NCBI GenBank assembly: GCA_963663475.2 | Contig: CAXXJV010000001.1 | Coordinates: forward strand, 2,336,001 to 2,400,000 | DNA: 64,000 nucleotides | Reading direction: 5' to 3' | Source of the DNA: Candidatus Cloacimonadales bacterium | Lineage (GTDB): Bacteria > Cloacimonadota > Cloacimonadia > Cloacimonadales > JAFGVF01 | Part shown: piece by piece, positions 42,521 through 62,585 of the stretch | Layout of the letters: every line of letters starts with the position of its first letter | Position numbering within the stretch: the first letter of the stretch is position 1 | Notes under the pieces: model-generated | The model's input: only the letters and a program-made list of their open reading frames with translations | Told to the model about the DNA's origin: nothing | Database searches by the model: none | Translations under genes and position numbers: made by a program

Positions 42521-43285
42521 CTATTTTGAATTTCTAAAGTTGATTATCTCGCCAGCTATACTAACAGCGATTTCATAGGGAGTATGAGATCTCATAGCGA
42601 GGCCAATAGGACATCTAACTTTTTGAATAATTTCTTCTGTATGATTTTCAGATAAATATTGTTTTAATTCATGAGCTTTACTCTTACTTCCCATTACCCC
42701 AATGTACTTTATATCTTTATCGATTAGTTGGTTAGTTACAATATTGTCGAATTCATGACCATAAGTCATTATAACAATATAATCAGCAGGACTGATTGCT
42801 ATATTTTCATTTATATGAGTAAAATCTGCTTTAATAAATGTGGTATTCTCTGGGAAATTAGCTGGTTTGAGCCATTGGTCTCGGTCATCGTAAATAGTAA
42901 TATTAAAATCTAATTGTGCTAATAGTCTGGAAAGAGCTTGCGAACAGTGACCTCCACCGAAAATTACAACCCTTTCTTTAACATTAATTGGCTCGACAAT
43001 CAGTTCAATATCGCCACCACAAACCATACCAAGCTCTGCTTGTTTCGAAAGAGGATAAACTAGGGTTATAAATTTGCTAGGTTGTTCCCGTCTAATCTTT
43101 TCAATAATATGATACTCAAGATTTCCACCACCAATAGTTCCAGATATCTCGTCATTATCTTTTGCAATAAGCATCTTTTGGCCTAAACTTCCTGGAGAAG
43201 ATCCTTGTACTTTAGTTACAGTAACAGACCATCCACTTCCGTTATTGGCTAATAAATCCAATAAATGTCTATAATAATTTTTCAT
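42521..43285 (-). CDS. xdhC: XdhC/CoxI-family molybdenum cofactor chaperone
   Basis: GSSPG, GTIGGGNLE, GMVCGG, FGGGH, YIGVMGS, PIGL...TPYEIAVSI. Confidence 0.9.
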   Translation of the reverse strand: MKNYYRHLLDLLANNGSGWSVTVTKVQGSSPGSLGQKMLIAKDNDEISGTIGGGNLEYHIIEKIRREQPSKFITLVYPLSKQAELGMVCGGDIELIVEPINVKERVVIFGGGHCSQALSRLLAQLDFNITIYDDRDQWLKPANFPENTTFIKADFTHINENIAISPADYIVIMTYGHEFDNIVTNQLIDKDIKYIGVMGSKSKAHELKQYLSENHTEEIIQKVRCPIGLAMRSHTPYEIAVSIAGEIINFRNSK

Positions 43286-43829
43286 TGTCAATTAAATCCT
43301 CTTTTCTGTTGATATTTTTCAAAATTCCTGGATCATTTACAGTAATTATCTCTCGCTCACATGTTTTAGTCAAATCTTTTAAAGTTTCACTAATTTTTAG
43401 ATACTGCAAGGCTAATTTAGGCATGATAATAGGGTGTCCTAATTTTTGCTTATAAGCAGGTATGATAAATTTAGAGTTACTTCTAAATTTTAACATTTCT
43501 TCAATAGTAGATTCTTTGACTAAAGGATGATCAATAGGCCAAATAATAATATTATCAAAATCCTTAATCTCTTCAATACCTTTAATTATTGAATCATACA
43601 TATCAAGCTTACTATCACCTATTATAGTAGTAAAAAGTCTCTCTGGATTAATTAAATGATGCAAGTCAGAATTGATAACAGCAAAGACCGACAAGTTAAG
43701 GGAGAGACATTTAGATGTTATAATATCTAAAAAAGTCTCTCCTTTAAATTTTGCTAATGCTTTGTGAGATCCGAATCTTTTACTAGCACCAGCTGATAAT
43801 ATTAAAGCTATTGTTTTACTTGAGAGCAT
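43269..43829 (-). CDS. mocA: MocA/YgfJ-like molybdenum cofactor cytidylyltransferase
   Basis: LILSAGASKRFG.HKAL, WPIDHP, GHP, NIN...D; located in a Mo-hydroxylase cluster. Confidence 0.75.
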   Translation of the reverse strand: MLSSKTIALILSAGASKRFGSHKALAKFKGETFLDIITSKCLSLNLSVFAVINSDLHHLINPERLFTTIIGDSKLDMYDSIIKGIEEIKDFDNIIIWPIDHPLVKESTIEEMLKFRSNSKFIIPAYKQKLGHPIIMPKLALQYLKISETLKDLTKTCEREIITVNDPGILKNINRKEDLIDNEKLL

Positions 43830-45294
43830 CCAATAGCCCAGTTCGAGCATTAAATTCTTTTATATATTCATCCCATTGATTAACTTGAGAGTACTGAGAA
43901 GTCCAGTAATCTTTTTGATACCATTGGGCATTTAATTCTTCAACAGTCTTTCCTTGTTGTTCAATCCAAGTGAAATATTTCAAATTATGCATTCGGCGTT
44001 TATCATAATAGGTCATTTCAATCATATCATCTGTCTTCACTGCCATAAGATTCTTTTCAAAATGAATATTTGCCATCACATTATTATATTGGCCTTGTTT
44101 TTCACGATATTCTATAACACGTGATTGATACATTTCCATTGAATCAGTTGCCACTGTAAAGATGTAATCATTTTCATCATACTCATAATACTTTGCCATT
44201 TTAATACAACCAAGTAAGTTAGCTATTGATGATACTCCTAATAAATCTAACTTTGATATTAAGTCTTCATCTATGCCTTTTTGTCTGAGTAAGTCATGTC
44301 CTTCTTTTTCATTGAAAAGACGCATTACATTGATAACATCATTATCATCTACAGCGATTGCCATATCCATATTTTTTATGTTATGAATCCATGGAACATG
44401 TTTATCTCCAATACCCTCAATCCGGTGTCCTCCATATCCATTATAGAGCAAAGTAGGACATTGAGTGGCTTCGCCAGCTGCTATTTTCATGTTAGGATAT
44501 ACTTCTTTAAGATAATCTCCAGAACCTAATGTGCCAGCAGAACCCTGAGTTAAGAATAGACCAGAGAAAGTATCACCTTCTCTTTTGATATTTTCAAAGA
44601 CTTCTTGCATAGCAGGTCCAGTAACAGCATAGTGCCAGAGTGGATTACCAATCTCAGCAAATTGATTTAAATTTACTATTGTATCACCTCTTTCATGAAG
44701 AAGTTCTTTTGCTTTATCGTATATTTCTTTAACATTAGATTCACAACCTGGTGTTGCAAAAACCTCTGCACCAATTTCTTTTAACCAATTAAATCTTTCT
44801 GCAGACATCTCTTCTGGTAACACAGCAATAGCTTCACAGCCTAATAGTGATGAATTATAAGCTCCACCTCGACAATAGTTACCTGTTGATGGCCAGAGAG
44901 CTTTTTGAGTAGTTGGGTCAAACCTTCCTGTAACTAGCTTTTCAACTAAAGGGCCAAATGTTGCTCCAACCTTATGAGCTCCTGTTGGAAAAAACTTACC
45001 AATTAGTATTACGATTGGACTCTTCACACCACTTAGTTCAGGTGGAATTACAATGTGATTAACACCTTGATAGCCTCCCCCAAATTTAGTTGGCTCATTC
45101 TTCCATGTTATTCTAAATAGATTTAATGGGTTTAAATCCCACAATCCAACATTTTTTAGTTTATCGACAATTTTATCTGGAATTAGTTCTGGATTTCTCA
45201 TTTGCTCGTATGTTGGGATAATAATATTTCTTTCTTTACAGCGTTGGATTGTATTTTCAAGTACTTTATTTTGTTCTGGTGTTAAGTTTTTCAT
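43816..45294 (-). CDS. Fold-type II PLP enzyme (cysteine synthase/tryptophan synthase beta superfamily), uncharacterised 490-aa family
   Basis: FPTGAHKVG (PLP Lys), WPSTGNY, NQF, GSAGTLG, HRIEGIGDKH. Confidence 0.8.
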   Translation of the reverse strand: MKNLTPEQNKVLENTIQRCKERNIIIPTYEQMRNPELIPDKIVDKLKNVGLWDLNPLNLFRITWKNEPTKFGGGYQGVNHIVIPPELSGVKSPIVILIGKFFPTGAHKVGATFGPLVEKLVTGRFDPTTQKALWPSTGNYCRGGAYNSSLLGCEAIAVLPEEMSAERFNWLKEIGAEVFATPGCESNVKEIYDKAKELLHERGDTIVNLNQFAEIGNPLWHYAVTGPAMQEVFENIKREGDTFSGLFLTQGSAGTLGSGDYLKEVYPNMKIAAGEATQCPTLLYNGYGGHRIEGIGDKHVPWIHNIKNMDMAIAVDDNDVINVMRLFNEKEGHDLLRQKGIDEDLISKLDLLGVSSIANLLGCIKMAKYYEYDENDYIFTVATDSMEMYQSRVIEYREKQGQYNNVMANIHFEKNLMAVKTDDMIEMTYYDKRRMHNLKYFTWIEQQGKTVEELNAQWYQKDYWTSQYSQVNQWDEYIKEFNARTGLLDALK

Positions 45295-45302
45295 TAAATC
45301 TC

Positions 45303-46490
45303 CTAAAAACGATATTTTAAGTTGTTTTGAATTTTACTAATTATTTGTTCTGGTGAATCGAACCTTGTAAGAATAGCCATTGCAGCAATTACAAATGGTT
45401 TAAAGCTAGCTTGATGATAAGTTTCTCTTCGATACTCTTCAAATACTTCTTTTGAAACTTCACCTTGAGAACAACTTACATCAGTTATATCAGCAGGCAA
45501 ACAATGCATGTAGAGAGCTTTTTTATTCTTTGTTAAGTTCATTTTAGCTCTATCACATTCCCAATTAACATATTTTTTGTTATTCTCTAAACAAGATTTT
45601 TCTAATTCATCTAAACCAAGCTTATCTTTGGCCATCAGTAATTCAGTCCTTTCTTGCATTACTTGCATTGGAGCCCATGATTTTGGATAAACAATATCTG
45701 CACCTTGGAAGGCTTCTTCCATAGAATTAGTTATTGAGAATTTAGAGTTTGATTCAGAGGCAATTCTTTTTGCATAATTTATTTCTTCATCAAGTAGATT
45801 ATAACCTTCTGGGTGAGCAAGAGTAACATCCATACCTAAACGTGGAAGTAAAGTAATAATTCCTTGAGGGACTGATAAAGGTTTACCATAACTTGGAGAA
45901 TAAGCCCAGGTCATAGCAACTTTCTTTCCTTTTAACTTGTCAAATCCTCCAAAATAATCTCGAAGTTTAGCTAAATCAGCCATGGTTTGGGTTGGGTGAT
46001 CTATATCACATTGTAGGTTTATTAGACCAGGACGTTGGTGGAGTACCCCTTCTTCGTAACCCATATCTAAGGCATCTGACACTTCTTTCATGTAAGTATG
46101 ACCTTCACCTAAATACATATCATCCCTAATACCAATCATTTCTGCAAGGAAGGATATCATATTAGCAGTTTCTCGAACAGTTTCTCCATGAGCAATTTGA
46201 GATTTAACTTCATCAAGATCTTGTACACCTAATCCTAAAGCATTAGCTGCTGAGGAGAAACTAAATCTAGTTCTTGTTGAATTATCTCGAAAAATTGATA
46301 TAGCCAAGCCGTTATCAAAGACTCTAAATGATTTATGATTTTGGTGGATTAACTTAAGCCAATCAGCGAGAAGAACTGTAGCTTTAATATGATCAAAAGA
46401 CTTATCTTTGGTAAGTAAGAAGTTTCTTCCATAATTATCAAAATTGAAATCCATTATTTTCTCAAATAAATTAGTCATGTTTTCTCTCAT
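45303..46490 (-). CDS. ygeW: Knotted carbamoyltransferase YgeW
   Basis: FRDNSTRTRFS, IRDDMY, LQCDIDHPTQ, WAYSPSYGKPLSVPQG, HCLPAD. Confidence 0.93.
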   Translation of the reverse strand: MRENMTNLFEKIMDFNFDNYGRNFLLTKDKSFDHIKATVLLADWLKLIHQNHKSFRVFDNGLAISIFRDNSTRTRFSFSSAANALGLGVQDLDEVKSQIAHGETVRETANMISFLAEMIGIRDDMYLGEGHTYMKEVSDALDMGYEEGVLHQRPGLINLQCDIDHPTQTMADLAKLRDYFGGFDKLKGKKVAMTWAYSPSYGKPLSVPQGIITLLPRLGMDVTLAHPEGYNLLDEEINYAKRIASESNSKFSITNSMEEAFQGADIVYPKSWAPMQVMQERTELLMAKDKLGLDELEKSCLENNKKYVNWECDRAKMNLTKNKKALYMHCLPADITDVSCSQGEVSKEVFEEYRRETYHQASFKPFVIAAMAILTRFDSPEQIISKIQNNLKYRF

Positions 46491-46498
46491 AAACTCTC

Positions 46499-46957
46499 CT
46501 ATTTATAAAATTTTGCAGCTGCAAGTATAGAATCAACAATCTGTTGATATCCTGTACATCTGCATAAGTTAATTTTTATAGCATCTCTAACTTGATCTTC
46601 ACTAGGCTTATTATTCTTTAATAATAAGGCATGTGCTGTGAGGACCATACCAGGAGTACAAAAACCACATTGAACTGCATCATGATCCAGAAATGATTTT
46701 TGCAAGGGGTGAAGTTCATTATTTTCTGACATTCCCTCAATTGTCAATACTTCTTTATTAATAATATCAGATACCAGCATTTTACATGATCTTCTTGCTT
46801 CTTGATCAACTAAAATAGTGCAAGCTCCACAAACACCGATATTACATCCGTTCTTTGTACCTGTTAAATCTAAATCTTCCCTAAGATAAGCTAATAACTG
46901 CTTTTCTAGGTCTGCATTATCTATTGTTATTTTTTTACCATTTATAATTGTTTCCAT
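46499..46957 (-). CDS. 2x[2Fe-2S] subunit of a molybdenum hydroxylase
   Basis: GCNIGVCGAC, QCGFCTPG, NLCRCTGY. Confidence 0.93.
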   Translation of the reverse strand: METIINGKKITIDNADLEKQLLAYLREDLDLTGTKNGCNIGVCGACTILVDQEARRSCKMLVSDIINKEVLTIEGMSENNELHPLQKSFLDHDAVQCGFCTPGMVLTAHALLLKNNKPSEDQVRDAIKINLCRCTGYQQIVDSILAAAKFYK

Positions 46958-49185
46958 AAATCCTCCAACAGCATTGGTAATTTTTTCATTCTCTGGCCAC
47001 TTGCTCTATATATGGCATTAGCTATTGCTGGTGATATAATTTCTAATGCTGGTTCTCCTATACCCTTAGCTCCTGATGGAGTATTTGGGTCTGGATTCTC
47101 TAGCACAAAATCATGAATTCTAGGCAATTCATTTGCTCTATAAATTCTATACTTGTTAAAGTTATCTGTTATAATATGACCATCTTTTATTATTAAGTTC
47201 TCCTTTAAAGCCATTCCTAAACCTTGAACAATTCCTCCATAAATCTGACCAGATAATAGTCCATTATTTATTGCCTTACCAATATCATGAACAGCATAAA
47301 TATTTAAGACTTTCAAATTTTTCCTATCAGTATCAATCTCAATTTCGGCTACTTGAGCACTATAGACATAAGTAAAATATGCTTTACCTGCGCCACATTC
47401 TTCGTCCCAAGTAACTGCTGGAGCTTCGAAACTTCCAAAAGCATAGGGATAAGTACAGTTCTGATACATTATCGACATAGCCTCTTCCCAAGAGATACTC
47501 TTACCTTGTGGACTATTCAATGTATCGTTAAGGTAGATAATTTCATTAGGCTGACAACCTAAATGAGGAGCTATAACATTATTAATAATAACTTTCAGCT
47601 TTTTTATAGCATCCATCAAAGCTCCCCCACCCATTAGAGTACCTCTAGAAGCAACAGTTGTTCCTCCGTCAGGTATCTGTGAAGTAGATGATCTTCTATA
47701 ACGAATTTTTGAGAAAGAAACACCAAGTTCTTCCTGTAAAATTTTCATCATTGCAGTTTCTGAGCCCTGACCATTTTCATGAATAGATACTTCAAGTAAA
47801 ATAGAGCCATCAAACTGAACATTTATTATTGCTGAAGTAAAATCCTTACCTTCGGCTCCTAGACTGCATCCCCTATAGGACATTGCTAAACCTATGCCAT
47901 AGAGTTTTGAGTTATGACTTTTCCCATAAGAAACTTTTTTGATTTTATTAAAGTAATCACTCTCTTTAATTACCTTATCTAAAACTTGATCTAAAGAAAC
48001 AATATGATTATCAAGTTTTTGCTGAGAAACAGTTATTGAATTTTGCCTTAACATATTCTCTTTTCTAAATTCGATAGCATCCTTTCCTAATTTCTCCGCA
48101 ATAATTTCAACAATTTGCTCTATAGCAAAGTTTACTTGCGGAGATCCAAAGCCTCTAAAAGCACCTGTATAAACATTGTTTGTATAAAATGATTTAACAT
48201 CAGTATAGACATGAGGGATTATGTAAGGTCCGCCACATTGAACAGTTGACCTCCAAGTAACCCAAGGAGAAACAGAGGTATAAGCTCCCCCATCTGCTAT
48301 GATATTACATTCTAAAGCATGAATTTTGCCAGCTTTAATGCCAACTTTATAATCCATTTTATAAGGATGCCTTTTATAACTTTCTTTAATCGACCATTCT
48401 CTTGTATAAGTCATTTTTACTGGTCTATTACATAAGAGTGAAGCCAAAGCAGTTCTAGCACATACTATAGCAGCGGTATCATCTTTACCACCAAAACCTC
48501 CTCCCATAGGAATAGTAATAACTTCTATTTCAGAAAGTTTTTTTCCTAGCATGGCTGCAGTAAATCTTCTTGTGGAAAAAGGATGCTGCATTGATCCATA
48601 TACTTCAATAACGCCGTCATCTCTCACTTGACAAACTGCTGCTTCTGCTTCTAGGTAACCATGTTCAACAAAATTACTTTCATAATGATCTTCAAGAATT
48701 AAGTCACACTCTGCAAAAGCAGACTTTGCATCACCCTTTCTTACCTTATGATGATTTATTAAATTGCTTCCATATACTTCATGAATTAATACTTCATCTT
48801 TACTAGCTTCCTCTGGAGAAAGAATTGCTGTTAAAGGCTGGTAAGTCACTTCTATTTTGGGTATAGCTTGCATAGCATGTTCAAGACTGTCAGCCACAAT
48901 AAGGGCTATTACATCTCCCTCATACCTTATCTTATCTTCAGCTAATAAAGAATAATCTTTGCGAATCTGTCCAAACTTCTTAACTCCAGGTATATCAGAA
49001 GCTGTAATTACTTTGACAACCCCTTCACTTAACTCAGCTTTTCCACATACTATGCTTTTAATCTCTGCATGTACCTGATCAGAATATACAGGAACACAAT
49101 GAAGCATACCATATAACTTTATATCGTCAGCATACTTAGCTTTTCCTGTTACTTTTGCAACTCCATCATTTCTCCATTGGGTCAT
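46942..49185 (-). CDS. Molybdopterin-binding subunit of a second xanthine-dehydrogenase-family hydroxylase
   Basis: AKVTG, EHGYLE, GGGFGGKDD, AFRGFGSPQ, GQG, TVASRG, GAKGIGEP. Confidence 0.9.
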   Translation of the reverse strand: MTQWRNDGVAKVTGKAKYADDIKLYGMLHCVPVYSDQVHAEIKSIVCGKAELSEGVVKVITASDIPGVKKFGQIRKDYSLLAEDKIRYEGDVIALIVADSLEHAMQAIPKIEVTYQPLTAILSPEEASKDEVLIHEVYGSNLINHHKVRKGDAKSAFAECDLILEDHYESNFVEHGYLEAEAAVCQVRDDGVIEVYGSMQHPFSTRRFTAAMLGKKLSEIEVITIPMGGGFGGKDDTAAIVCARTALASLLCNRPVKMTYTREWSIKESYKRHPYKMDYKVGIKAGKIHALECNIIADGGAYTSVSPWVTWRSTVQCGGPYIIPHVYTDVKSFYTNNVYTGAFRGFGSPQVNFAIEQIVEIIAEKLGKDAIEFRKENMLRQNSITVSQQKLDNHIVSLDQVLDKVIKESDYFNKIKKVSYGKSHNSKLYGIGLAMSYRGCSLGAEGKDFTSAIINVQFDGSILLEVSIHENGQGSETAMMKILQEELGVSFSKIRYRRSSTSQIPDGGTTVASRGTLMGGGALMDAIKKLKVIINNVIAPHLGCQPNEIIYLNDTLNSPQGKSISWEEAMSIMYQNCTYPYAFGSFEAPAVTWDEECGAGKAYFTYVYSAQVAEIEIDTDRKNLKVLNIYAVHDIGKAINNGLLSGQIYGGIVQGLGMALKENLIIKDGHIITDNFNKYRIYRANELPRIHDFVLENPDPNTPSGAKGIGEPALEIISPAIANAIYRASGQRMKKLPMLLEDLWKQL

Positions 49186-50507
49186 ATAATACTTCCTCTT
49201 GGTGTGTTTGTAAGAAATTCTCCATTTTCTACTAAGAAGTCACCACTTTTCATTACCTTATAAATATTTAATGAAGTTGTTAAATCTTCATATGGATTAT
49301 AAATACCTTGTCTTCCTTCAATTGGGTGTTCACGATCAAAATCAATAACAACTAAATCTGCCATTGAACCTTCTTTGATTATTCCTTTATCTGGATATAA
49401 GCCAGCTAGATGGGCAGGTTCTGATGAAAATTTATTTTGCAGAAACTTTGCTTTATCAAAATCTCTATCAAAGATATTCGCTGTTAAATAAGGTATGAAA
49501 TCTAAACCATCAAGTCCGCCTGGAGCCTTAGAATAGAATGTTTTACCTATCATCTTTTGATTGATAGTAAAAGGACAATGATCTGAGGCTATTATATTAA
49601 AATAGTTTAATTTAAAACCTTCAGCTATCTTTCTGGCATTTTCTTTATCTCTGAGTGGAGGCGCACAGATTAATTGCTCTCCATATGACTCAGTATATTT
49701 TGTGTTATCTAAGAAAATGTACTGAGGACAGGTCTCACAACTAACATAATTATTGTATTTAAGTCTGTTAATTAGCTCCATTGCCTCAACAGTTGAGACA
49801 TGAACAATATGGAAATGAGCACCTGTTGAACGAGCAATTCTAAGAATTCTATTAACAGCAGTTAACTCTACAGTTTTAGATCGTACTCGCGATATGTTAT
49901 TTAAAGAAGTCTTGTGTAGTTTTATAGACTTAGTCTTTATCAAGTCATCATCTTCACAATGAACTAATATTAAAACTTGTTTATCAACATATCGTTTAGC
50001 AAATTCTTCTATCTCATGGTAAGTTGAGTATATTCCAGCTTTTTTATAGGTTGTATATAATTTAAAAGTAGTAAAACCTTCTTCTATGAGTTCTGATATT
50101 GTTTTATGGCTTTCTTCATCAAAAGTAGTAGGAGTTAAATGCCAACCAACATCACACCATAAATTATCTTTGGCTTTTTGATGTGTCCTCTCAACTGCTT
50201 GACGTAAACTTTCTCCCTTCCTCTGAGTGATAAAGCTAAATAGACTTGTTATACCATTCTTTAAAGCTACTCTAGTACCTGAATCATAGTTATCAGCAAT
50301 AGGTATTCCGTTTATCTCATCATCTAGATGTACATGAAAATCTATAAAGCCAGGTAAAACAAATTTAAAATCAATATCAGTAACATCCCAGTCAGATTCT
50401 GCTTTAATTTCATCAGCAATTTTTACAATAGTATCTTTATCAATTAATATATCTTGATTTATAATAACATCTTCACTAATTAAGCTACAATTCTTTAATA
50501 GTTTCAT
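49182..50507 (-). CDS. hyuA: Hydantoinase/dihydropyrimidinase (HyuA-like)
   Basis: PGFIDFHVH, FKLY (carbamylated Lys), VHCE, VHVS, ETCPQY, SDHCPF. Confidence 0.8.
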   Translation of the reverse strand: MKLLKNCSLISEDVIINQDILIDKDTIVKIADEIKAESDWDVTDIDFKFVLPGFIDFHVHLDDEINGIPIADNYDSGTRVALKNGITSLFSFITQRKGESLRQAVERTHQKAKDNLWCDVGWHLTPTTFDEESHKTISELIEEGFTTFKLYTTYKKAGIYSTYHEIEEFAKRYVDKQVLILVHCEDDDLIKTKSIKLHKTSLNNISRVRSKTVELTAVNRILRIARSTGAHFHIVHVSTVEAMELINRLKYNNYVSCETCPQYIFLDNTKYTESYGEQLICAPPLRDKENARKIAEGFKLNYFNIIASDHCPFTINQKMIGKTFYSKAPGGLDGLDFIPYLTANIFDRDFDKAKFLQNKFSSEPAHLAGLYPDKGIIKEGSMADLVVIDFDREHPIEGRQGIYNPYEDLTTSLNIYKVMKSGDFLVENGEFLTNTPRGSII

Positions 50508-50514
50508 TTCACTC

Positions 50515-51745: not shown

Positions 51746-52591
51746 TTAGAACAATTTATAGGTTAAAGATAAACCTGAAGTCTGTTTGAATCTTCCAGTA
51801 TAATCAATTTCTTTATCATATAGAAGTTGAGTATAAACATTGAATGAAAGATATTTGTATAATTGGATACTGACTTCGTTTGTCCATTCTATATCAATTT
51901 GCTTCCAGTCATCATTACCCTCTAAAGCTTCATCTTCTTCTGAGTTGAAAAAAGCTTGGAATAAGAAAAGATTAGAAGTAAATTTTGTTCTTTCTAATGG
52001 GCAAACCCACATGAATTCAGTCACAGATTCAGCACCACCATCTATCATAGGGGCTATACCATAAACATAATTTTCTCTCATAAGAAGACCGGCTCTGGTA
52101 TTTAGAGCTAAACGTTCTTCTTCAAGTATGATTTTAGCAGCACCAATACCTTGAGAGAATCTTGCAGGATCTAAAGCTCTCTTACTTTCACCTTCGAAAA
52201 CAGTTTCAAGTCTGAGTGAAACATAAGGATCTACCCAGCCATCAAAGGTTAATAAGCCTAATGATAAGAAATCAATTTCATCATCTGATTTCCTGGGAGC
52301 TTGCCAACCTGGAGCTTGCATACCTTGTTCATCTTTTTCTGTATCATATATTTGACCAAATTTTAGTTTCAAAGTATTCATAGATCTGAACCAGTATAAT
52401 AATTGCTTATTTGCTGTCATATTTCCTTGAATCAACCAATTAATATTAGATTCTTCTTCACCATCCCAATTATCAGTATAGTAACTTTGAGATAAGGTCC
52501 CTTTTACATCAAAAGAATATTCCCATCTTTCTTGAGCTACTATAGTCCCTAATAACATTGTGATTAATGCAATAAATAGAATTTTCTTCAT
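51746..52591 (-). CDS. DUF3078-like outer-membrane beta-barrel protein
   Basis: Signal peptide, SQSYYTDNWDG.E, KFGQ, KSDDEI, QLLYDK, C-terminal LSLTYKLF. Confidence 0.7.
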   Translation of the reverse strand: MKKILFIALITMLLGTIVAQERWEYSFDVKGTLSQSYYTDNWDGEEESNINWLIQGNMTANKQLLYWFRSMNTLKLKFGQIYDTEKDEQGMQAPGWQAPRKSDDEIDFLSLGLLTFDGWVDPYVSLRLETVFEGESKRALDPARFSQGIGAAKIILEEERLALNTRAGLLMRENYVYGIAPMIDGGAESVTEFMWVCPLERTKFTSNLFLFQAFFNSEEDEALEGNDDWKQIDIEWTNEVSIQLYKYLSFNVYTQLLYDKEIDYTGRFKQTSGLSLTYKLF

Positions 52592-53797: not shown

Positions 53798-53798
53798 T

Positions 53799-55115: not shown

Positions 55116-57577
55116 TAGCTTCTTGCCTCCTCTGGACTTCTTTGACGCATGAATAGGGCTCCGCTGAAACACTTTTGCACGCATATGGAGCAACCAATAC
55201 ATTTACTTGCGTCTGTAACTGGTATTTTGTCTTCATTTAATGTGATAGCTAGATATGGACATCTGCTACAGTTTCCACAATGTTCACATAAATCAGGGTC
55301 AACATCTGAGATTCTCTTTACAGGAGAGATATCCATGAAATCTAGTATTGGACTAGGGAGTGCTACACCTATTAAGTCATCGATACTTTTCATACCTCTA
55401 TCTTTCATCATATAAGCTAAGCCTTGTTCTAAATCTTTAATAACCCCTACTCCATCTTTCATTACTGCAGTACAGAACTGAACTGTCTTACAGCCTAAAG
55501 CAAGGAAATCAGCAGCATCTTTATAGTTCATAGTTCCTCCGTTGCCAGAGATTGTCAGGCCTAAAGGAGCTGCTTTTGATAGGGTAAGATTAGAAATATA
55601 CTTAACAGAATCTCCAGACATACCTACCATTATTCCATCTTCCCATTCCTCTTTAACATCTTTTCTGAAAGCAACACTTGGGAAGGAGTTCGCTAGAGTT
55701 ATACCTGCTTTTTTATTAGAGTATTTGGCAAAAACTTGCTTAATTGCTTCTAAAATAGGAACAATTGAAGTTACTGCTCCAGTTAGTTTGAAAAGTTTAG
55801 GGATTTCAGAATCAGAAACCTCTAATACCCAATCTATCACTTTAGCGGCTAGTTCTGCATTTTGTGAGACAATATCGCCTTCAGTTCCATCTCCACCTTG
55901 AGGACATGATAAACTATACTCAACACCATGAACTTTAGCAGAATCTATAAGCTTAGTATTTGCTTGCCATACAGCCTTATCTTCCTCATCATGACCTGTT
56001 ACTGGTCCACCAGTAGATACTATAGTTAACCTATCTGGGAATTCAGTAATAATGTTCTTAGCATTAGCCAGTACTTTTCTTAGTGGTACTTCAGAAACAT
56101 TATCGCAGTTAGCATAGGTTTCTTGGTTAAACTCGAACATATAATCGTGTGGGATATGGATATCTAAATCATCAAAAGCAGTTTTCATAACAGCTCCAGC
56201 CCAACCAGCCTCATATGCTTTTTTAACTTGGTCATAACCATCAGAAGGTGGTGCAGCTGAAAGAATAAATGGTGATATCATTTCTCTTCCAAAGAAGTCT
56301 GCCTTTATGGAAACATCTTTTGTATAAGTATCTTTGAGCCCCAAATATGATTTAACATGTTTATCAGGTATTTCTGCATCAATGCTTTGTCCGAAACTTC
56401 TTAGAACTTCAACAGCACAGTTGCGACCACTAGCTACAGCTTCCACAACTGTTGTAGCATTATTTCTTAAATCACCACATTTAAAAACTTTACCCTTAGC
56501 AATGTCATTTTCAATACTGGATCTACTACCAACTGCAAAAATAACATAATCGTAAAAATCAGAGTGAAACTCGGTATTAGCTATTTTTTCAATCTTAGAT
56601 AAGTCAAAGTCTCTACCATGTAGTTTTACTCTTTGGCAATGAAGCTTTAAGCCATTTTCATCAGACTCTATTTCTTTAACAATAGTTCTAAAATAATTTC
56701 CAAAATTATTGTTAAGTAACTCTTTTTGCTCTTTTGAATCTAATCTCATTTCAGATAAATTCTCTAAAGTGAAGAAATCAACAACTTCAGCACCACTATT
56801 GACTGCTTTCATACCACAGTCCATTGCTACTGCTCCCCCACCTATAATAGCATATCTGGAATTGTCTTCTAGTTTTGCTAGACTCAAGAATGACTTCCAA
56901 TCATGAGCTAACTCTTTGCCATGAATGTTTAGTTTTATGGCTTGATCTTGACCACTAGCTAGAATAACTGCATCATACATTTCAGCAAACTTATCTAAAT
57001 CCATAATATTTGTTTTGTTATAAACTCTGATATTATCATGATTTATTGCCTGATTAATATCACTTTCCAAAACTTCTTTATTGAGTCTGTATTCTGGAAT
57101 AAAATCACACATACCACCTAAAATATCTTCTCTTTCAAAGATATCAACATTTACTCCATACTGAGCTAAAATATTAGCACATCCTATACCTGAAGGTCCT
57201 CCACCAATAATACCCACTTTCTTTTTTATAGATTCATTTTGCTGGAATTCTGGTTTAAAACCTAAGTCTTTACCCATCTGGATAATCTTAGCTTGTACAT
57301 CAGGAATTTTAATGGGGTTATCAAAAGTTTGTCTGGAACAGGCTGCCATACAATGATAATCTGGACAGACAGAACCACAGATTCCTCCTAGAATATTTTT
57401 TGATAAAATAATTGTAGAAGCTCTTTTTATATCGCTATCAGCCCCATTTTTTACCGCTTTGATAAATTCAGCAGGTGAGCAAGAAACTGGGCAAGCATCC
57501 ATACAAGGCATTTCTTCACAGTAGACACATCTATCTACTTCATTTTTAAATTGGGCATCAGTTAAAAATTTATACAT
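55115..57577 (-). CDS. Fused PreT-PreA (dihydropyrimidine-dehydrogenase-like) Fe-S flavoprotein
   Basis: RCVYC..PC..ACP, CGSVCP..HC..AC, two GGG Rossmann motifs, then an FMN TIM barrel (PFILSA, VMKT, SLSCP, KLT, ANS, GMSG, SGNGG, VQFCT) and C-terminal 2x[4Fe-4S]. Confidence 0.85.
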   Translation of the reverse strand: MYKFLTDAQFKNEVDRCVYCEEMPCMDACPVSCSPAEFIKAVKNGADSDIKRASTIILSKNILGGICGSVCPDYHCMAACSRQTFDNPIKIPDVQAKIIQMGKDLGFKPEFQQNESIKKKVGIIGGGPSGIGCANILAQYGVNVDIFEREDILGGMCDFIPEYRLNKEVLESDINQAINHDNIRVYNKTNIMDLDKFAEMYDAVILASGQDQAIKLNIHGKELAHDWKSFLSLAKLEDNSRYAIIGGGAVAMDCGMKAVNSGAEVVDFFTLENLSEMRLDSKEQKELLNNNFGNYFRTIVKEIESDENGLKLHCQRVKLHGRDFDLSKIEKIANTEFHSDFYDYVIFAVGSRSSIENDIAKGKVFKCGDLRNNATTVVEAVASGRNCAVEVLRSFGQSIDAEIPDKHVKSYLGLKDTYTKDVSIKADFFGREMISPFILSAAPPSDGYDQVKKAYEAGWAGAVMKTAFDDLDIHIPHDYMFEFNQETYANCDNVSEVPLRKVLANAKNIITEFPDRLTIVSTGGPVTGHDEEDKAVWQANTKLIDSAKVHGVEYSLSCPQGGDGTEGDIVSQNAELAAKVIDWVLEVSDSEIPKLFKLTGAVTSIVPILEAIKQVFAKYSNKKAGITLANSFPSVAFRKDVKEEWEDGIMVGMSGDSVKYISNLTLSKAAPLGLTISGNGGTMNYKDAADFLALGCKTVQFCTAVMKDGVGVIKDLEQGLAYMMKDRGMKSIDDLIGVALPSPILDFMDISPVKRISDVDPDLCEHCGNCSRCPYLAITLNEDKIPVTDASKCIGCSICVQKCFSGALFMRQRSPEEARS

Positions 57578-59885
57578 ATAAACCTCTCTTTTTAATATCT
57601 TCAATTGCCAACAAGACAGCTTCCGGAGTTGCTGGCATTTTTAGCTTAATAGTTTCCGGAGACTTAGTTACATAACTTATAGCATTCATTATTGAGAACC
57701 AACCTGCTAAGCCATAAAGGAAAGGTGGTTCTCCCACAGCCTTAGACCCAAGAACACTTGCCTGAGATCTTTCTTTATTTACTTGTTTTACCACGAAATT
57801 TGAACAAACATCACTCATAGTTGGAATTTTATAGGTTGAAGGAGTAGTTGCCATACTTTCTCCTTTGTCATTATATCTTACTTCTTCCATTGTACAATAG
57901 CCTAATCCTTGAACCGTAGCTCCATATATTTGACCTAAATCAATCTCTTTGTTAATAGGAATTCCATTGTCATGAGCAATATAAATTGATTCAAAACTAT
58001 ATTCCCCAGTTAGGATATCAACTTCAGAGACTATTAAGCTCGCGCCATAAACGAAATAATAAAAGGGATTTCCCTTATTTGTAATTTTATCAAAATGTAT
58101 ATCTGGAGTCTTATAAAAACTATGTTCTCCAAGATCAATTCTATTCATATAAGCATAGTGGGCAAGTTCTTTAAAAGTAATTTTCTCATTAGGAAAGTTA
58201 CTAGAATAAACCATATTATCAGCAAAAACAATATCTGTTTCTTGAGTTTGTATTTGATATTTCTCTATTAGTAAATCTACAGCAGCTTTTCTTAATCTAG
58301 CTTTCAAGTTTTCGCTAGCTTGTCTAGCAGCATTTCCATTTAAATCAGAACCTGAAGAAGCTGCAGTAGGAGATGAGTTCCCCACTCTTTTAGTGTTAGT
58401 ACTTTCGCTTCTAACATTATCAATAGAGATACCTAGAGTTTCACTAACAATTGTAGCAACCTTAGTATATAATTGTTGGCCCATTTCAATCCCGCCATGA
58501 CTGAGAGATATAGAGCCATCTGAATATATCCAGATTAAGGCTGATCCTTGGTTTAGGAAAGTAGCGGTAAAAGAGATACCAAATTTACCTGTAACAATAC
58601 CTATTCCTTTCTTTTTATACCTATGCTTCTTATTGAAGTCATTGATTTCAGCTTTTAATTTTTTATAATTAGAAATTGCTTCAAGTTCTTCTAACATCTC
58701 TAAGCCTAAGGCTTCTTTAACTTCCATTCCGTATTGGGTTGTTTGACCTACCCTATAAACATTCTTCTTCCTAATCTCTAGCAAATCCATTCCTAAGGAA
58801 TAAGCAACTTTCTCTAAGGCTAGTTCAGTAGTAATAATTGACTGGGGAGCTCCAAAACCTCGAAAAGCAGTATTAGAAGGCAAATTAGTCCTGTAAGCAG
58901 TTCCTGTAACATGCATTTTAGGGATATAATAACCGCTATCAGAATGAAGTAAACCTCTTTCTAGAATTGCGAATGATAAATCTATATAAGCACCACCATT
59001 TGCCTTTAAGTCTAGCCTATAGTCTAACAACTTTCCTGATTTATTGAATTTTATAGTATAATCATTAACAAACTCATGTCTCTTACCAGTCCAACTAATA
59101 TCATCTTTTCTCTCAAGAGCTAAATACACAGGTTTTTTGAGATTATAAGCTGCAATAGTAGTAATGCCTGCCCAGAGGGTTGCTTGTGCTTCCTTACCTC
59201 CAAAAGCTCCTCCTAACCTTCTCACATCAACAGTAATGTAATTAGAAGATACTCCTAGTAGTCTGGCACATATTTCCTGAACTTCTGAAACAGCTTGTGT
59301 AGAGCTATAGACAGTAAAGTAGCCATTCTCTTCACAATTAACAAAGCATCTTTGTGTTTCAAAATAAAAATGCTCCTGAGCTCCAACTGTTAATTGACCT
59401 GATATTACTTTTAGATCTTCTTCTTGGTCTGGGAAATTGTCTATTCTTTGGAATAGCCTTGTTGGGCCATATTCAGTTTTAGCTTCCACTGCTTGCTGAA
59501 CTTTAAGAATTGCCTTCAAATCTTGGTATTCTACTTTTATTTTTCTACTCAAACTAATAGCAGATTCTAAAGTCTTAGCTACCACAATAGCAATAGGTTC
59601 CCCAACATAATTTACTTGATTTTCAGCTAAAAGAGGTTGCTGGTCACCATTTCCATGAGCAATATTATTTTCTCCAGGAAGGTCTTTATATGTTAAAAGC
59701 TTAACAAAGTTGGGATTATCTTCAATAGCCTGACAATCTATACTAAGTATTTTAGCTTTTGCCTTAGAACTTACCAGTGGATAAGCATATAGGCATTCAG
59801 CTACTCCTTGGGCAATATTCTCAACAAAAGTAGAAGAGCCTTTAACATGTAATTTTCCTGAGAGGTGTTTTGAATTAACTTTCAT
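57570..59885 (-). CDS. xdhB: Xanthine dehydrogenase molybdopterin subunit (Rhodobacter/Pseudomonas type)
   Basis: QEHFYFE, RRLGGAFGGKE, TAFRGFGAPQ, FGISF, TAASSGSDLNG, KAVGEPP. Confidence 0.92.
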   Translation of the reverse strand: MKVNSKHLSGKLHVKGSSTFVENIAQGVAECLYAYPLVSSKAKAKILSIDCQAIEDNPNFVKLLTYKDLPGENNIAHGNGDQQPLLAENQVNYVGEPIAIVVAKTLESAISLSRKIKVEYQDLKAILKVQQAVEAKTEYGPTRLFQRIDNFPDQEEDLKVISGQLTVGAQEHFYFETQRCFVNCEENGYFTVYSSTQAVSEVQEICARLLGVSSNYITVDVRRLGGAFGGKEAQATLWAGITTIAAYNLKKPVYLALERKDDISWTGKRHEFVNDYTIKFNKSGKLLDYRLDLKANGGAYIDLSFAILERGLLHSDSGYYIPKMHVTGTAYRTNLPSNTAFRGFGAPQSIITTELALEKVAYSLGMDLLEIRKKNVYRVGQTTQYGMEVKEALGLEMLEELEAISNYKKLKAEINDFNKKHRYKKKGIGIVTGKFGISFTATFLNQGSALIWIYSDGSISLSHGGIEMGQQLYTKVATIVSETLGISIDNVRSESTNTKRVGNSSPTAASSGSDLNGNAARQASENLKARLRKAAVDLLIEKYQIQTQETDIVFADNMVYSSNFPNEKITFKELAHYAYMNRIDLGEHSFYKTPDIHFDKITNKGNPFYYFVYGASLIVSEVDILTGEYSFESIYIAHDNGIPINKEIDLGQIYGATVQGLGYCTMEEVRYNDKGESMATTPSTYKIPTMSDVCSNFVVKQVNKERSQASVLGSKAVGEPPFLYGLAGWFSIMNAISYVTKSPETIKLKMPATPEAVLLAIEDIKKRGLYV

Positions 59886-61350
59886 CAGTCACCTCCATTT
59901 TAAATTTATATAAATGTTTGAAAACATGGTTCCTAATTAATATCTGACGGTACTCAGCTGATCCTCTAATATCACTAATAGGAGTGAACTCATCAGCAAC
60001 TTTATCTGCGACAGAGCCCATATCTATATCTTTTATATGCTTACCTCTTATTTCTAAAGCGATACTTAAAGCTAATTTTGGGTAAGCAGCAACTCCCCCA
60101 AAAGAAAATCGACTTACATTAACAACACCATTATCGTGTTCAATATAGGCAAAGGAGCAGACTGACGATATATCTAATGTCTTTCTCTTAGCAGACTTTT
60201 CAAAATTATAATAACCAGTAATATGTAGCGGAATTATAATCTCTTTTATAAACTCATGTTTTTTCAGAACAGTTTCCTTATAACCCTTGTAGAATTGATC
60301 AATTGAGACTTGCCTTTCTCCCTCATTTCCAAAGAGTATTAATCTAGCATTGAGACCAATTAAAGCTGTAGCACAATCTCCAACTGGTGAAGCATTACCA
60401 ACATTGCCTCCAATTGATGCTATATTTCTTATTTGCTTACTTGCCATTTTACTTGCAACATGGGCAAGACAAGGAAGATGTTGATTAACTAGACTATTTG
60501 TCCTGATTTCCTCTAAAGGAGTTGAGGCACCAATAACTAAATAGTCTCCTTGATATTTTATTTCTTTCATTCCAGGTATGAAACTAATATCTAGATAATT
60601 TTTAAAATAAGTTCGTCTGAGATTACCAACTACATATAAGTCTGTCCCCCCAGAAATAACCTTAATAGTTCCTTTACCTGAAAGCTTGTTAATTACTTCT
60701 TGGTATTTACTTAATGACTTAATTAGATAATAACCTTGAACACCTCTTTCAGAAATAGACTGTTCATTAGTCTCTAAATCATTTATTTTAGCTAGTTCTG
60801 CAAGTGTCTTATTAGCACCAACTAGTTTTGCTGGAAATAAATTATCATGATTATTAGTAAAATACTTTATAATCTCTAAAGCACCTTTAATTATATGAAC
60901 ATAACCTGTACATCTGCATAAGTTACCATTCAAAGATTCTTTCAAATCCTCTTCATTATAAGAATCATTCTCGGCTAAATAAGCAAAGATAGACATAACT
61001 ATTCCAGGTGTACAAAAACCGCATTGAGTGCTATAATTGTTATAAAGTATTTCTTGTATTGGGTGAAGCTGGTCTGCACCATCTGTTAAACCCTCAACTG
61101 TTATTACATGCTTATTTAAAATCTTCTCTGCTGGATATAAACATGAATTTACTGCCCTGTAGGAGATTTTGCCTTTTACATATTCACTTATTGTTACTGT
61201 GCAAGCCCCACAGTCTCCTTCATTGCAAACGGATTTGGTTCCATTTAATTTATATTCATCTCTTATAACTTCTAACAAGGTGGTAGAGGGAGTCACTTCT
61301 AAAGTCTTAACTTCCCCATTCAAAACGAATTTAATAATATTTGTTTGCAT
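59875..61350 (-). CDS. xdhA: Xanthine dehydrogenase 2Fe-2S plus FAD subunit
   Basis: CNEGDCGAC, QCGFCTPG, GNLCRCTGY, GGTD, QIRNIASIGGN, SPVGD, PISDIRGSAEYR. Confidence 0.92.
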   Translation of the reverse strand: MQTNIIKFVLNGEVKTLEVTPSTTLLEVIRDEYKLNGTKSVCNEGDCGACTVTISEYVKGKISYRAVNSCLYPAEKILNKHVITVEGLTDGADQLHPIQEILYNNYSTQCGFCTPGIVMSIFAYLAENDSYNEEDLKESLNGNLCRCTGYVHIIKGALEIIKYFTNNHDNLFPAKLVGANKTLAELAKINDLETNEQSISERGVQGYYLIKSLSKYQEVINKLSGKGTIKVISGGTDLYVVGNLRRTYFKNYLDISFIPGMKEIKYQGDYLVIGASTPLEEIRTNSLVNQHLPCLAHVASKMASKQIRNIASIGGNVGNASPVGDCATALIGLNARLILFGNEGERQVSIDQFYKGYKETVLKKHEFIKEIIIPLHITGYYNFEKSAKRKTLDISSVCSFAYIEHDNGVVNVSRFSFGGVAAYPKLALSIALEIRGKHIKDIDMGSVADKVADEFTPISDIRGSAEYRQILIRNHVFKHLYKFKMEVTDES

Positions 61351-61364
61351 AAATTCTCTCTTTT

Positions 61365-62585
61365 TTATGTGTTAACTATTCTTCCATTAATATAAACTTC
61401 CTCAATCGCAGAAGCTCCCTCAACAAAAATCAATTGTGACAGTATCTCTTGGGCTGTCTGATCAGGATTAACATTCATAATCAAAAAATCAGCAGACTTT
61501 CCAATCTCTATTGATCCAATTATATCTTCTTTAGAAAGCACTCGAGCAGAACCTAAGGTTGCTAAATAAAAAGCTTCTTCCACTTCTAAAGAATAATTCA
61601 TTTGCATATAGTTAGCCATTTTCATATGATAAAACATATCTAGACAAGTTCCTCCAGCCACATCCGAACCTAAACCAATAGTAAGATTACTGTCAATTAA
61701 TTTTTTATAGGGGAAGGGCCCAGACTTTAAAAAGAAGTTAGAATCAGGACAATGAGCTAGTTTTGTCTTAGTCTTTTCTAACAAAGCAATTTCACTATTT
61801 TCTAAATGAATTGTATGGGCCATAATTGTCTTAGGACCTAAAATGTTAGCTCTATTATAGACATCAGTATAGGATTTTGCTTGAGGGAAAAGCTTTTTCA
61901 CTAAAGCTATTTCATTCTTATTCTCAGAAAGATGGGTTTGAATATAATGGTCATTTTTTTGAGCATAATTACCAATCATTGACATCAAGTTATGACTGCA
62001 TACAGGGGCAAATCTAGGAGTAAAAATATAATCTAAGAGGGGTTTTTTATCCCATTGCTGACAGAGTTCAACAGATTCATCAAAAGACTTTTGGCTATCT
62101 TCTAATAAGTCTTGGGGAGAATTTTGGTCCATACAGACCTTGCCTATCAAGGCACGATAGTTCAATCTTTGAGCTTCTTCAAAAGCAATATTTGTTGCTT
62201 CTTGAGAAACACTTACATAAATTGAGGCACAAGTTGTTCCAGTCTTAATTAAATTCTTAAAAAAATCATTAGCAACTTGTCTAGCATAAAATTTATCATT
62301 GAATTTTGCTTCTTCTGGAAAAGTATAGCTACTTAACCAGTCTAGCAAATCACTCTTGTACCTTCCTCTGATTTTCCATTGGGACAGATGAACATGGGTA
62401 TCAATTAAACCAGGAATGACCAGCTTATCCCTCTTATCTATGATTGATTTGTTGGTTATATCAAAGTCTGTAACTGCTTGTATATTATTAATTTTACTAT
62501 TATCAATTGTTAAAATTACGTCTTTTAAATATTCTACTTCTGTCCTAGAAACTGGATTGAGTATGTTACATCTGATATATTCCAT
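61365..62585 (-). CDS. guaD: Guanine deaminase
   Basis: PGLIDTHVHLSQ, LLDWLxxYTFPEE, TPRFAP, QTHLSEN, HCPDSN, GSDVAGG. Confidence 0.93.
   Translation of the reverse strand: MEYIRCNILNPVSRTEVEYLKDVILTIDNSKINNIQAVTDFDITNKSIIDKRDKLVIPGLIDTHVHLSQWKIRGRYKSDLLDWLSSYTFPEEAKFNDKFYARQVANDFFKNLIKTGTTCASIYVSVSQEATNIAFEEAQRLNYRALIGKVCMDQNSPQDLLEDSQKSFDESVELCQQWDKKPLLDYIFTPRFAPVCSHNLMSMIGNYAQKNDHYIQTHLSENKNEIALVKKLFPQAKSYTDVYNRANILGPKTIMAHTIHLENSEIALLEKTKTKLAHCPDSNFFLKSGPFPYKKLIDSNLTIGLGSDVAGGTCLDMFYHMKMANYMQMNYSLEVEEAFYLATLGSARVLSKEDIIGSIEIGKSADFLIMNVNPDQTAQEILSQLIFVEGASAIEEVYINGRIVNT

Follow-up and report, generated by a model that had tools for sequence, protein, structure and literature searches.

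A variant urate-degradation operon in Cloacimonadales with candidate substitutes for YgfK and YgeX

A 64,000-nucleotide stretch of the genome of Candidatus Cloacimonadales bacterium (assembly GCA_963663475.2, contig CAXXJV010000001.1, positions 2,336,001 to 2,400,000; referred to here as the window) carries 15 genes that we read as one anaerobic purine-degradation operon, in a version that is conserved in the Cloacimonadales and also occurs in Bacteroidota. We give this explanation as a whole a probability of roughly 60%. The reductive urate (2,8-dioxopurine) pathway as such is already known, and the cluster encodes a version of it. This version departs from the known pathway in three respects that together define a new variant: a reductase with the domain order of dihydropyrimidine dehydrogenase (DPD), two pyridoxal-phosphate (PLP) enzymes at the last step, one ThrC-like and one of 492 amino acids (aa), and no YqeB or YqeC in the genome. 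The PLP enzymes are the most interesting of the three, with their chemistry still to be assigned and their genes misnamed in many genomes.

All 15 open reading frames lie on the minus strand, running from position 62585 to 42521 of the window; seven of the junctions overlap, and neighbouring genes are nowhere more than 94 bp apart (51651/51746). We identified the genes by NCBIfam and Pfam profile scans, with scores judged against the curated cut-offs. Together with the list of open reading frames, these scans bear out the co-oriented 15-gene order given in a preliminary description of the window, as well as its view that this is a purine or urate catabolic operon of the ssnA–ygeY–ygeW type. 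SsnA, YgeY, YgeW and GuaD all exceed curated cut-offs and share 33–58% identity with the Escherichia coli proteins. The pathway marker ssnA (53799..55115; 438 aa), which encodes a ring-opening amidohydrolase, scores 512.3 bits with NF005540 (cut-off 444) and 465.5 bits with TIGR03314 (cut-off 455.5). The M20 ureido-group hydrolase gene ygeY (52595..53797; 400 aa) reaches 539.1 bits with NF009555 (cut-off 321; 51% identity with E. coli YgeY), and ygeW (45303..46490; 395 aa), for a knotted carbamoyltransferase, reaches 615.4 bits with NF005538 (cut-off 453; 58% identity with E. coli YgeW). The operon begins with guaD (61365..62585; 406 aa), for guanine deaminase, at 404.5 bits with TIGR02967 (cut-off 375.4; 37% identity with E. 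coli GuaD). The source genome (G000; 2 contigs, 3.30 Mb) is 99.24% complete.

The distribution of the cluster was examined in 41 Cloacimonadales genomes, including the source genome. The TIGR03314 cut-off is reached in 20 of these; we classed 24 as clear SsnA carriers (at least 406 bits, truncated copies included) and 9 further genomes as carriers of a second SsnA type (280–325 bits), 5 of which have it next to YgfK, giving 33 SsnA-bearing genomes in total. The complete gene set is present in the same order in six genomes (G002, G003, G004, G006, G013 and G027) and is split or rearranged in five (G007, G008, G009, G014 and G034). The cluster is also found in all three Bacteroidota that carry the fused reductase, where the order is fusion–ssnA–ygeY–ThrC-like–hydantoinase–molybdenum subunit–2Fe-2S subunit–ygeW–492 aa–mocA–xdhC, interrupted in one genome by a contig end.

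As set out in two 2025 preprints, the known pathway converts urate to 2,8-dioxopurine (XdhD/DOPDH), reduces the ring (YgfK), opens the rings (SsnA and HyuA), removes one ureido group through YgeW with carbamate kinase and another through YgeY, and converts diaminopropionate to pyruvate (YgeX) (10.1101/2025.05.19.654654; 10.1101/2025.04.24.650524). On the basis of family membership and comparative genomics, we propose that the operon would follow the same route. Guanine would be converted to xanthine by GuaD, and xanthine would be oxidized to urate by the XdhA/XdhB-type enzyme, a putative xanthine/hypoxanthine dehydrogenase. A molybdenum enzyme of 747-aa and 152-aa subunits, without a flavin adenine dinucleotide (FAD) subunit, would then reduce urate to 2,8-dioxopurine. 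The reduction of the ring, which is the job of YgfK, would fall to the DPD-architecture fusion by way of NAD(P)H, FAD, Fe-S and flavin mononucleotide (FMN), and the two rings would be opened by SsnA and a hydantoinase-type enzyme. One ureido group would be taken off by YgeW as carbamoyl phosphate, from which an unlinked carbamate kinase would yield ATP, and the other by YgeY. The C3 amino acid that is left (2,3-diaminopropionate or a mono-ureido form) would be turned into pyruvate and ammonia by the ThrC-like enzyme, aided by the 492-aa enzyme, which is the reaction of YgeX in E. coli. In this genus, where an unlinked YgeX also exists, the last step is perhaps redundant or shared. Both molybdenum enzymes would be matured by the MocA and XdhC of the operon rather than by the selenium-linked YqeB and YqeC.

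Comparison with the E. coli K-12 cluster (ygeW-ygeX-ygeY-hyuA-yqeA...mocA-ygfK-ssnA-ygfM-xdhD) shows what is shared: orthologues of SsnA, YgeY, YgeW and GuaD, a reductase gene directly before ssnA, a mocA-type gene and two molybdenum hydroxylases. By contrast, the operon has a DPD-order fusion instead of YgfK, lacks YgfM and any XdhD-type subunit bearing the E606 loop, and has a hydantoinase that is not a HyuA orthologue; YgeX and carbamate kinase are unlinked and XdhC replaces YqeB/YqeC. The operon further includes the ThrC-like enzyme, the 492-aa PLP enzyme and a probable outer-membrane protein.

Candidate enzymes of the last step

Comparative genomics makes the ThrC-like enzyme (50515..51651; 378 aa) the best candidate for a terminal lyase equivalent to YgeX, and it fits complementarity with YgeX better than the 492-aa enzyme (43816..45294) does. 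To Clostridia we applied an even sample of 300 scored genomes (one genome was not scored), counting as SsnA carriers those with E ≤ 1e-90. Among the 22 carriers, 13 have YgeX and 9 have the ThrC-like enzyme, with none having both and none having neither (Fisher P = 2e-6, for relatives that are not independent). YgeX was found in none of the nine, so that completion of the pathway in them requires another enzyme, and the only candidate common to all nine is the ThrC-like enzyme. The 492-aa enzyme accompanies it in seven of the nine and is present in none of the other 278 Clostridia, which gave no SsnA match at this threshold. In six of these seven the loci hold urate-type cluster genes, with the two PLP genes as direct neighbours in five and separated by two genes in the sixth; in the seventh (G041, locus L108) the two PLP genes are adjacent.

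A comparable association is seen in the Cloacimonadales, in which the 492-aa enzyme occurs in 29 of the 33 SsnA-bearing genomes and in none of the 8 that lack SsnA. The four SsnA-bearing genomes without it all have a ThrC-like orthologue, in two cases on the ssnA contig. We rejected a strict one-for-one exchange of YgeX for the 492-aa enzyme, given these four genomes and two SsnA-bearing Clostridia with the same combination, the ThrC-like enzyme present and the 492-aa enzyme absent.

The 492-aa family comprises at least 594 loci, and the gene neighbourhoods of the best 80 were counted with 10-kb flanks. At least one pathway gene lies within 10 kb in 54 of these 80, a true YgfK in 17 and a ygeX-like gene in 2; a ThrC-like gene is found in 35, within 1.5 kb in 30. 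Sixteen genomes have a 492-aa gene with no ThrC-like gene nearby, and 14 of them have a ThrC-like orthologue elsewhere (479–594 bits). The remaining two lack one and are precisely those in which a ygeX-like gene neighbours the 492-aa gene.

Several observations weigh against a replacement of YgeX, beginning with the source genome itself. This genome encodes a full-length YgeX-type diaminopropionate ammonia-lyase (409 aa), on contig 2 and alone among unrelated genes, which scores 522.1 bits with NF006058 (cut-off 276), also exceeds the TIGR01747 cut-off, falls slightly short with TIGR03528 (494.6 bits, cut-off 532.25) and shares 45% identity with E. coli YgeX. It also encodes a carbamate kinase (YqeA/ArcC; contig 1, 38396-39325; 399.4 bits against a cut-off of 358.25) that is unlinked to the operon. 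The earlier statement that no YgeX and no carbamate kinase are visible is valid for the window and not for the genome, because both are encoded elsewhere in it. Across the 41 Cloacimonadales, YgeX was found in seven, six of them in the genus of the window and the seventh a partial match (G015). Within the genus it is present in all six cluster-bearing genomes (G000 included) and not in the one cluster-less genome (G005), where neither SsnA nor the ThrC-like enzyme was found. YgeX thus tracks the cluster within the genus and could be the enzyme that carries out the last step in this genome. The coexistence of YgeX with the ThrC-like and 492-aa enzymes in this genus is an exception to their exclusion that weakens the term replacement for this genome. 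Furthermore, 26 of the 80 loci examined for the 492-aa enzyme, many of them on short contigs, have no pathway gene within 10 kb, and the ThrC-like enzyme occurs in 3 Clostridia without SsnA at the threshold used.

These observations invite the alternative that diaminopropionate is handled here by the unlinked YgeX at the terminal step, as in E. coli, and that the PLP enzymes of the cluster do something else in the pathway. Such a role may be the processing of one enantiomer or of a mono-ureido regio-isomer (beta-elimination from 3-ureidoalanine), racemization, or diversion of the C3 unit to biosynthesis. In addition to the pattern within the genus, the two loci in which the 492-aa gene has a ygeX-like neighbour speak for this alternative, as does the fold of the 492-aa enzyme, which is that of beta-replacement enzymes and not of any known ammonia-lyase. 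We nevertheless consider it unlikely: no YgeX was found in the cluster-bearing genomes of other Cloacimonadales families, at least 22 SsnA-bearing genomes outside the genus are without it, and the ThrC-like enzyme is the one candidate shared by all nine Clostridia discussed above. The proposal of the preliminary description that YgeX is replaced is thus refuted in part, on the criterion it set itself, by the YgeX of the source genome, and is still supported more broadly by clusters without YgeX outside the genus and by the perfect complementarity of the ThrC-like enzyme and YgeX in SsnA-bearing Clostridia. YgeX-type lyases also occur in 19 of those 278 Clostridia that gave no SsnA match; they therefore have roles outside the pathway and are a poor sole marker for it.

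The preprints bear on this step in three ways. YgeX is reported to have equal activity on the D and L isomers, and in the published network 'YgeX' is coloured by PF00291 (10.1101/2025.05.19.654654), a choice that would also capture other PALP enzymes, including the two PLP genes described here. The terms 'threonine synthase' and 'cysteine synthase' appear in the text of neither preprint, supplements aside, and a literature search that consisted mostly of title-level listings returned nothing on a ThrC-like or CysK-like enzyme in the urate pathway.

A candidate reductase of DPD architecture before ssnA

The gene that directly precedes ssnA encodes an 820-aa fusion of PreT-like and PreA-like parts (55115..57577), with Pfam domains Fer4_20 (11-110), Pyr_redox_2 (129-366) and DHO_dh (485-733). 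On the comparative evidence we conclude that it is a probable functional stand-in for YgfK and a candidate 2,8-dioxopurine reductase. Its start is most likely the ATG at 57577, which gives 820 aa and matches the starts of homologues, and that of ssnA is most likely the ATG at 55115, which forms a TAATG overlap with the stop codon of the fusion and has GGAGG ahead.

A search of the whole genome with the YgfK model TIGR03315 yielded no match over the cut-off of 835.3 bits; the fusion scores 137.3 bits with this model. The best match (325.6 bits) was rejected as YgfK, since it is a NuoG/GltD-type fusion of 1098 aa whose gene belongs to a NuoE/NuoF-like operon. In this protein (L011:6862-12396, equivalent to G000:C1:2646861-2652395), 2Fe-2S, GltD-like and NuoG-like parts are joined; its gene adjoins NuoF-like and NuoE-like genes, with Rnf/Nqr-like genes farther along, and it belongs to an electron-transfer complex and not to this pathway.

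The domain order of the operon's fusion is reversed relative to YgfK, because E. coli YgfK has its flavin/Fe-S module in the C-terminal half (Fer4_20 453-532, Pyr_redox_2 552-839) and the fusion has it in the N-terminal part. The full order of the fusion is an N-terminal Fe-S region, an FAD/NAD(P)H module, an FMN TIM barrel and a C-terminal pair of [4Fe-4S] clusters. Among the 33 SsnA-bearing Cloacimonadales, 23 have the fusion, 6 have YgfK, 4 have neither and none has both, and the counts over all 41 genomes are the same for the fusion (23), YgfK (6) and both together (0). These results uphold the preliminary description on three counts: that ygfK is missing, that the fusion has the opposite domain order and that this DPD-like fusion occupies the place of YgfK before ssnA. 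Four genomes of family f2 (G012, G024, G031 and G036) have an SsnA-like gene (280–315 bits) and the 492-aa enzyme, with neither the fusion nor YgfK found at the thresholds used; these genomes may rely on a third type of ring reductase.

Two features of the distribution count against assigning the fusion to this pathway. It adjoins ssnA in 13 of its 23 carriers and lies elsewhere in the rest, 7 Cloacimonadales being listed with the fusion away from ssnA, and its family is widespread, with more than 50% identity across many phyla, whereas its neighbours were examined in the Cloacimonadales and in three Bacteroidota. A metagenome scan with the fusion yielded one close relative. The fusion might then be an ordinary dihydropyrimidine dehydrogenase that, with the hydantoinase-type enzyme and the M20 hydrolase, forms a reductive pyrimidine branch, making the cluster a mixed one for purines and pyrimidines in which another protein reduces 2,8-dioxopurine. 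Its wide occurrence fits this possibility, and so do several features of sequence. The fusion is collinear with pig DPD (PDB 1gt8), an order also shared with bacterial PreT/PreA, and the cysteine of its LSCP motif aligns with DPD position 671, which we take to be catalytic. Its best NCBIfam matches are to PreA and GltD-type models, PreA foremost, and the 441-aa amidohydrolase of the operon scores best as a dihydropyrimidinase type and has 27% identity to HyuA. Other evidence makes this explanation quite improbable in our view. The fusion falls short of the PreA equivalog cut-off (NF006183; 197.7 bits against 335), and the residue that aligns with Asn668 of DPD, presumably involved in pyrimidine binding, reads Ser. 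In comparison with pig DPD itself it scores 142.9 bits, is about 200 residues shorter and stands in a purine and not a pyrimidine context. The mutual exclusion with YgfK among SsnA-bearing relatives points the same way, as do the translational overlaps of the fusion gene with both xdhB and ssnA, its retention beside xdhAB in G034, where it is detached from the rest of the cluster, and its position beside ssnA in all 3 carriers among 251 Bacteroidota genomes.

We regard the fusion, as a candidate ring reductase, as a single-chain relative of a published idea that bears its own NAD(P)H module, and not as a new principle. YgfK is reported to be replaced in Clostridioides difficile by UacX, a PydA homologue without an FAD domain that is probably ferredoxin-dependent, and the need for coupling a PydA-type replacement of YgfK to SsnA has been published as well (10.1101/2025.05.19.654654). 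The other preprint places carbamate kinase elsewhere on the chromosome in some strains (10.1101/2025.04.24.650524). Replacement of YgfK by a PydA-type enzyme and a carbamate kinase away from the cluster are thus already in print. The C. difficile UacX/UacY variant shares with the operon a DHO_dh/PydA-type FMN enzyme in place of YgfK and a molybdenum enzyme without an FAD subunit. It differs in that UacX has no FAD-binding domain, whereas the fusion carries a complete FAD/NAD(P)H module on the same polypeptide (the two being compared by description and shared PF01180 only), and in that YgeW is replaced there by UacY but retained here.

Identity and fold of the two PLP enzymes

The ThrC-like enzyme, a PALP-family protein with an N-terminal CxxC...CxxC motif, is predicted to have the ThrC fold (pLDDT 94.3). 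The model of the 492-aa enzyme (pLDDT 88.1), which matches PALP alone in Pfam, has a CysK/CBS-like core flanked at both termini by conserved helical extensions. The best fold match of the latter is CysK 8sru, with a TM-score of 0.81 when normalized by the target and 0.53 when normalized by the query, only the core being matched; about 85 N-terminal and 100 C-terminal residues are without counterpart in CysK. Members of this family are 54–80% identical to the window protein across phyla, with both extensions included (31-row alignment). The PLP-lysine motifs SYKDR and TGAHK are present, and both enzymes have an STGN loop. The ThrC-like enzyme reads T-G...T where all five solved ThrCs have N-S...R, positions that we take to bind the substrate phosphate.

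The two enzymes therefore share their folds with ThrC (Bacillus subtilis 6cgq/6nmx) and CysK (Staphylococcus aureus 8sru), but both fall below the family cut-offs (161.8 bits with TIGR00260 against 167.1 for the ThrC-like enzyme, and 108.9 bits with the CysK model TIGR01139 against 350.95 for the 492-aa enzyme), and their distribution follows SsnA and not amino-acid biosynthesis. We searched the genome for the context that a threonine synthase would need. The operon gene is the only ThrC-family match (161.8–162.1 bits); there is no match to homoserine dehydrogenase (Homoserine_dh), which was found in 14 of 14 control genomes, and nothing over the cut-off for the homoserine kinase thrB. All five of the other pair-bearing genomes have a separate, higher-scoring canonical thrC. 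The idea that the two genes are an ordinary threonine synthase and cysteine synthase lying in the operon by chance can draw on the database names of relatives ('cysteine synthase' or 'pyridoxal-phosphate dependent enzyme'), on the best solved relatives and on the lack of another ThrC-family gene, but we reject it as extremely improbable, given a sole ThrC match below its cut-off, no homoserine enzymes to feed it, the separate thrC of other genomes, the restriction of the 492-aa enzyme to SsnA-bearing Cloacimonadales and Clostridia, and the place that both genes hold in purine clusters across phyla.

We view the 492-aa enzyme, from these comparisons, as an apparently frequent and sometimes fused companion of the ThrC-like enzyme. 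Two long proteins (P0244 and P0246) contain a full ThrC-like part and a full 492-aa part, and other long proteins join a 492-aa part to SsnA-like parts; a point to be set against this view is that the fused proteins are single metagenomic gene calls and possibly artefacts. A pair that splits stereo-isomers or regio-isomers between its members would fit both the pairing and the published finding that YgeX acts equally well on the D and L isomers. In a broader form, which we advance tentatively and rate at a little under even odds, the ThrC-like and 492-aa enzymes would be a hitherto undescribed two-component PLP system, in some organisms a single chain, that replaces YgeX at the final carbon step of anaerobic purine degradation across many anaerobic phyla. 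The ThrC-like enzyme would be the true analogue of YgeX and the 492-aa enzyme would serve an enantiomer or mono-ureido isomer unusable by its partner, the two being accompanied in the Cloacimonadales by a single-chain NAD(P)H-dependent DPD-type reductase and by molybdenum hydroxylases that are independent of YqeB/YqeC.

Other arrangements of the family were also seen. In an Anaerolineales metagenome-assembled genome (L109:516-13725), genes for an OTC-like carbamoyltransferase, carbamate kinase and a Bmp/PnrA-type nucleoside ABC transporter are followed by ThrC-like, GT2-like, 492-aa and hydantoinase genes. The surrounding 10 kb contain neither ssnA nor ygeY nor a true ygeW, and the layout recurs in several Anaerolineae loci. 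In four proteins of 867–1142 aa (P0250-P0253), the first half of the 492-aa enzyme (approximately residues 12-245) is followed by carbamoyl-phosphate-synthase-like ATP-grasp domains; these may be real fusions or gene-calling artefacts.

Molybdenum enzymes, remaining genes and implications

The first molybdenum enzyme is encoded immediately after guaD. Its XdhA-type small subunit (59875..61350; 491 aa) has 2Fe-2S and FAD domains (Pfam Fer2, Fer2_2, FAD_binding_5 and CO_deh_flav_C) and has its best full-length match to TIGR02963, at 387.5 bits (cut-off 467). The XdhB-type molybdopterin subunit (57570..59885; 771 aa; Ald_Xan_dh_C, MoCoBD_1 and MoCoBD_2) matches TIGR02965 over its full length (2-765) at 794.6 bits, also below the cut-off (849.5).

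The second enzyme consists of a 747-aa molybdopterin subunit (46942..49185), whose best NCBIfam matches are far below the cut-off (pucD, 433.9 against 783.65), and a 152-aa 2Fe-2S subunit (46499..46957; Fer2 and Fer2_2), with no FAD subunit beside it. By elimination and from its fixed position in the cluster, we infer that this is the enzyme that would reduce urate to 2,8-dioxopurine, equivalent to XdhD/DOPDH. The gene for the 152-aa subunit always follows that for the 747-aa subunit in related clusters. The 747-aa subunit has 25–28% identity to E. coli XdhD (25%), to E. coli XdhA and to the XdhB of the window, and scores 204.5 bits with the XdhD model TIGR03313 (cut-off 1101.9). We rejected it as an orthologue of XdhD, as the loop that holds E606 in E. 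coli XdhD is absent. In one preprint this loop is tied to the formation of 2,8-dioxopurine (10.1101/2025.05.19.654654); a subunit that lacks it and is no closer to XdhD than to XdhA is a difficulty for our assignment.

No match to YqeB or YqeC was found in the source genome, and none to YqeB in any of the 41 Cloacimonadales, 33 of which carry SsnA-type clusters. The clusters end with mocA and xdhC in place of YqeB/YqeC, which suggests that the molybdenum enzymes mature without the YqeB/YqeC selenium system. In the window the first of these (43269..43850; 193 aa) encodes a MocA-type (MobA-like) molybdenum cofactor nucleotidyltransferase (NTP_transf_3, 73.5 bits; TIGR03310, 66.1 bits, below the cut-off of 186), and the last gene of the operon (42521..43291; 256 aa) encodes an XdhC-type chaperone for insertion of the cofactor (XdhC_CoxI and XdhC_C; TIGR02964, 150.3 bits, slightly below the cut-off of 161.6). 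The genome has selD with an in-frame TGA (G000:C1:619467-620393), and a selenocysteine tRNA gene lies in the window (13695-13783, minus strand; 62.5 bits). The organism therefore uses selenocysteine despite having no YqeB/YqeC, and the presence of SelD and this tRNA tempers the case for independence, as selenium may still be used as such. YqeB/YqeC and SelD were present in all cluster-bearing gut strains studied, according to the preprint on the selenium-dependent DOPDH pathway of Clostridium sporogenes (10.1101/2025.04.24.650524). As described there, that pathway shares with the operon the route to pyruvate and carbamoyl phosphate, a urate-reducing molybdenum enzyme without FAD and a carbamate kinase that is possibly elsewhere, but YgeX is its terminal enzyme and its YqeB/YqeC have no counterpart here.

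The amidohydrolase gene between the ThrC-like gene and the second molybdenum enzyme (49182..50507; 441 aa) encodes a cyclic amidohydrolase of the hydantoinase/dihydropyrimidinase family that is probably equivalent to HyuA. A gene of this type has the same position in all related clusters. The name hyuA, used in the preliminary description, was right as to superfamily and expected position but not as to orthology, with 276.6 bits for TIGR02033 (cut-off 393.25) and the low identity to E. coli HyuA given above.

Between ygeY and the ThrC-like gene lies a gene for a secreted protein of 281 aa (51746..52591), with a hydrophobic N terminus and a C terminus that ends ...YKLF. It has no sequence match in NCBIfam, Pfam or PDB, and its nearest ESM Atlas clusters are DUF3078 (score 0.98). 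It is probably an outer-membrane beta-barrel and could possibly be an uptake channel. A gene of this kind occurs at this position only in family f1 (G002, G003, G004, G006 and G008) and is missing from the clusters of other families and of Bacteroidota, which are identical in other respects.

Upstream of guaD there is a promoter-like site (62641-62613), and a terminator-like hairpin follows serC (62825-62800); an Rfam scan found no riboswitch upstream of the operon. Directly after xdhC, with no terminator-like site between, is a gene for a 1063-aa hybrid sensor kinase (38958-42149, minus strand; dCache, PAS, HisKA, HATPase and receiver domains), which keeps this position in G002, G003, G004 and G006 and might act as a sensor for control of the operon.

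The anaerobic urate pathway was worked out only in 2025, from E. coli and gut clostridia, and efforts to use it in urate-lowering probiotics are under way. Many anaerobes from the environment (Cloacimonadota, Bacteroidota, Chloroflexota, Spirochaetota and some Clostridia) appear to use different enzymes at two of its steps, and surveys that rely on YgfK, YgeX or YqeB as markers would miss such organisms. Hundreds of genes that now bear the name threonine synthase or cysteine synthase probably belong to purine catabolism, given the size of the 492-aa family alone, and with the ThrC-like enzyme there is a specific candidate for a new activity that degrades diaminopropionate. As this version of the pathway is apparently independent of the selenium-cofactor system, it is perhaps easier to transplant for engineering.

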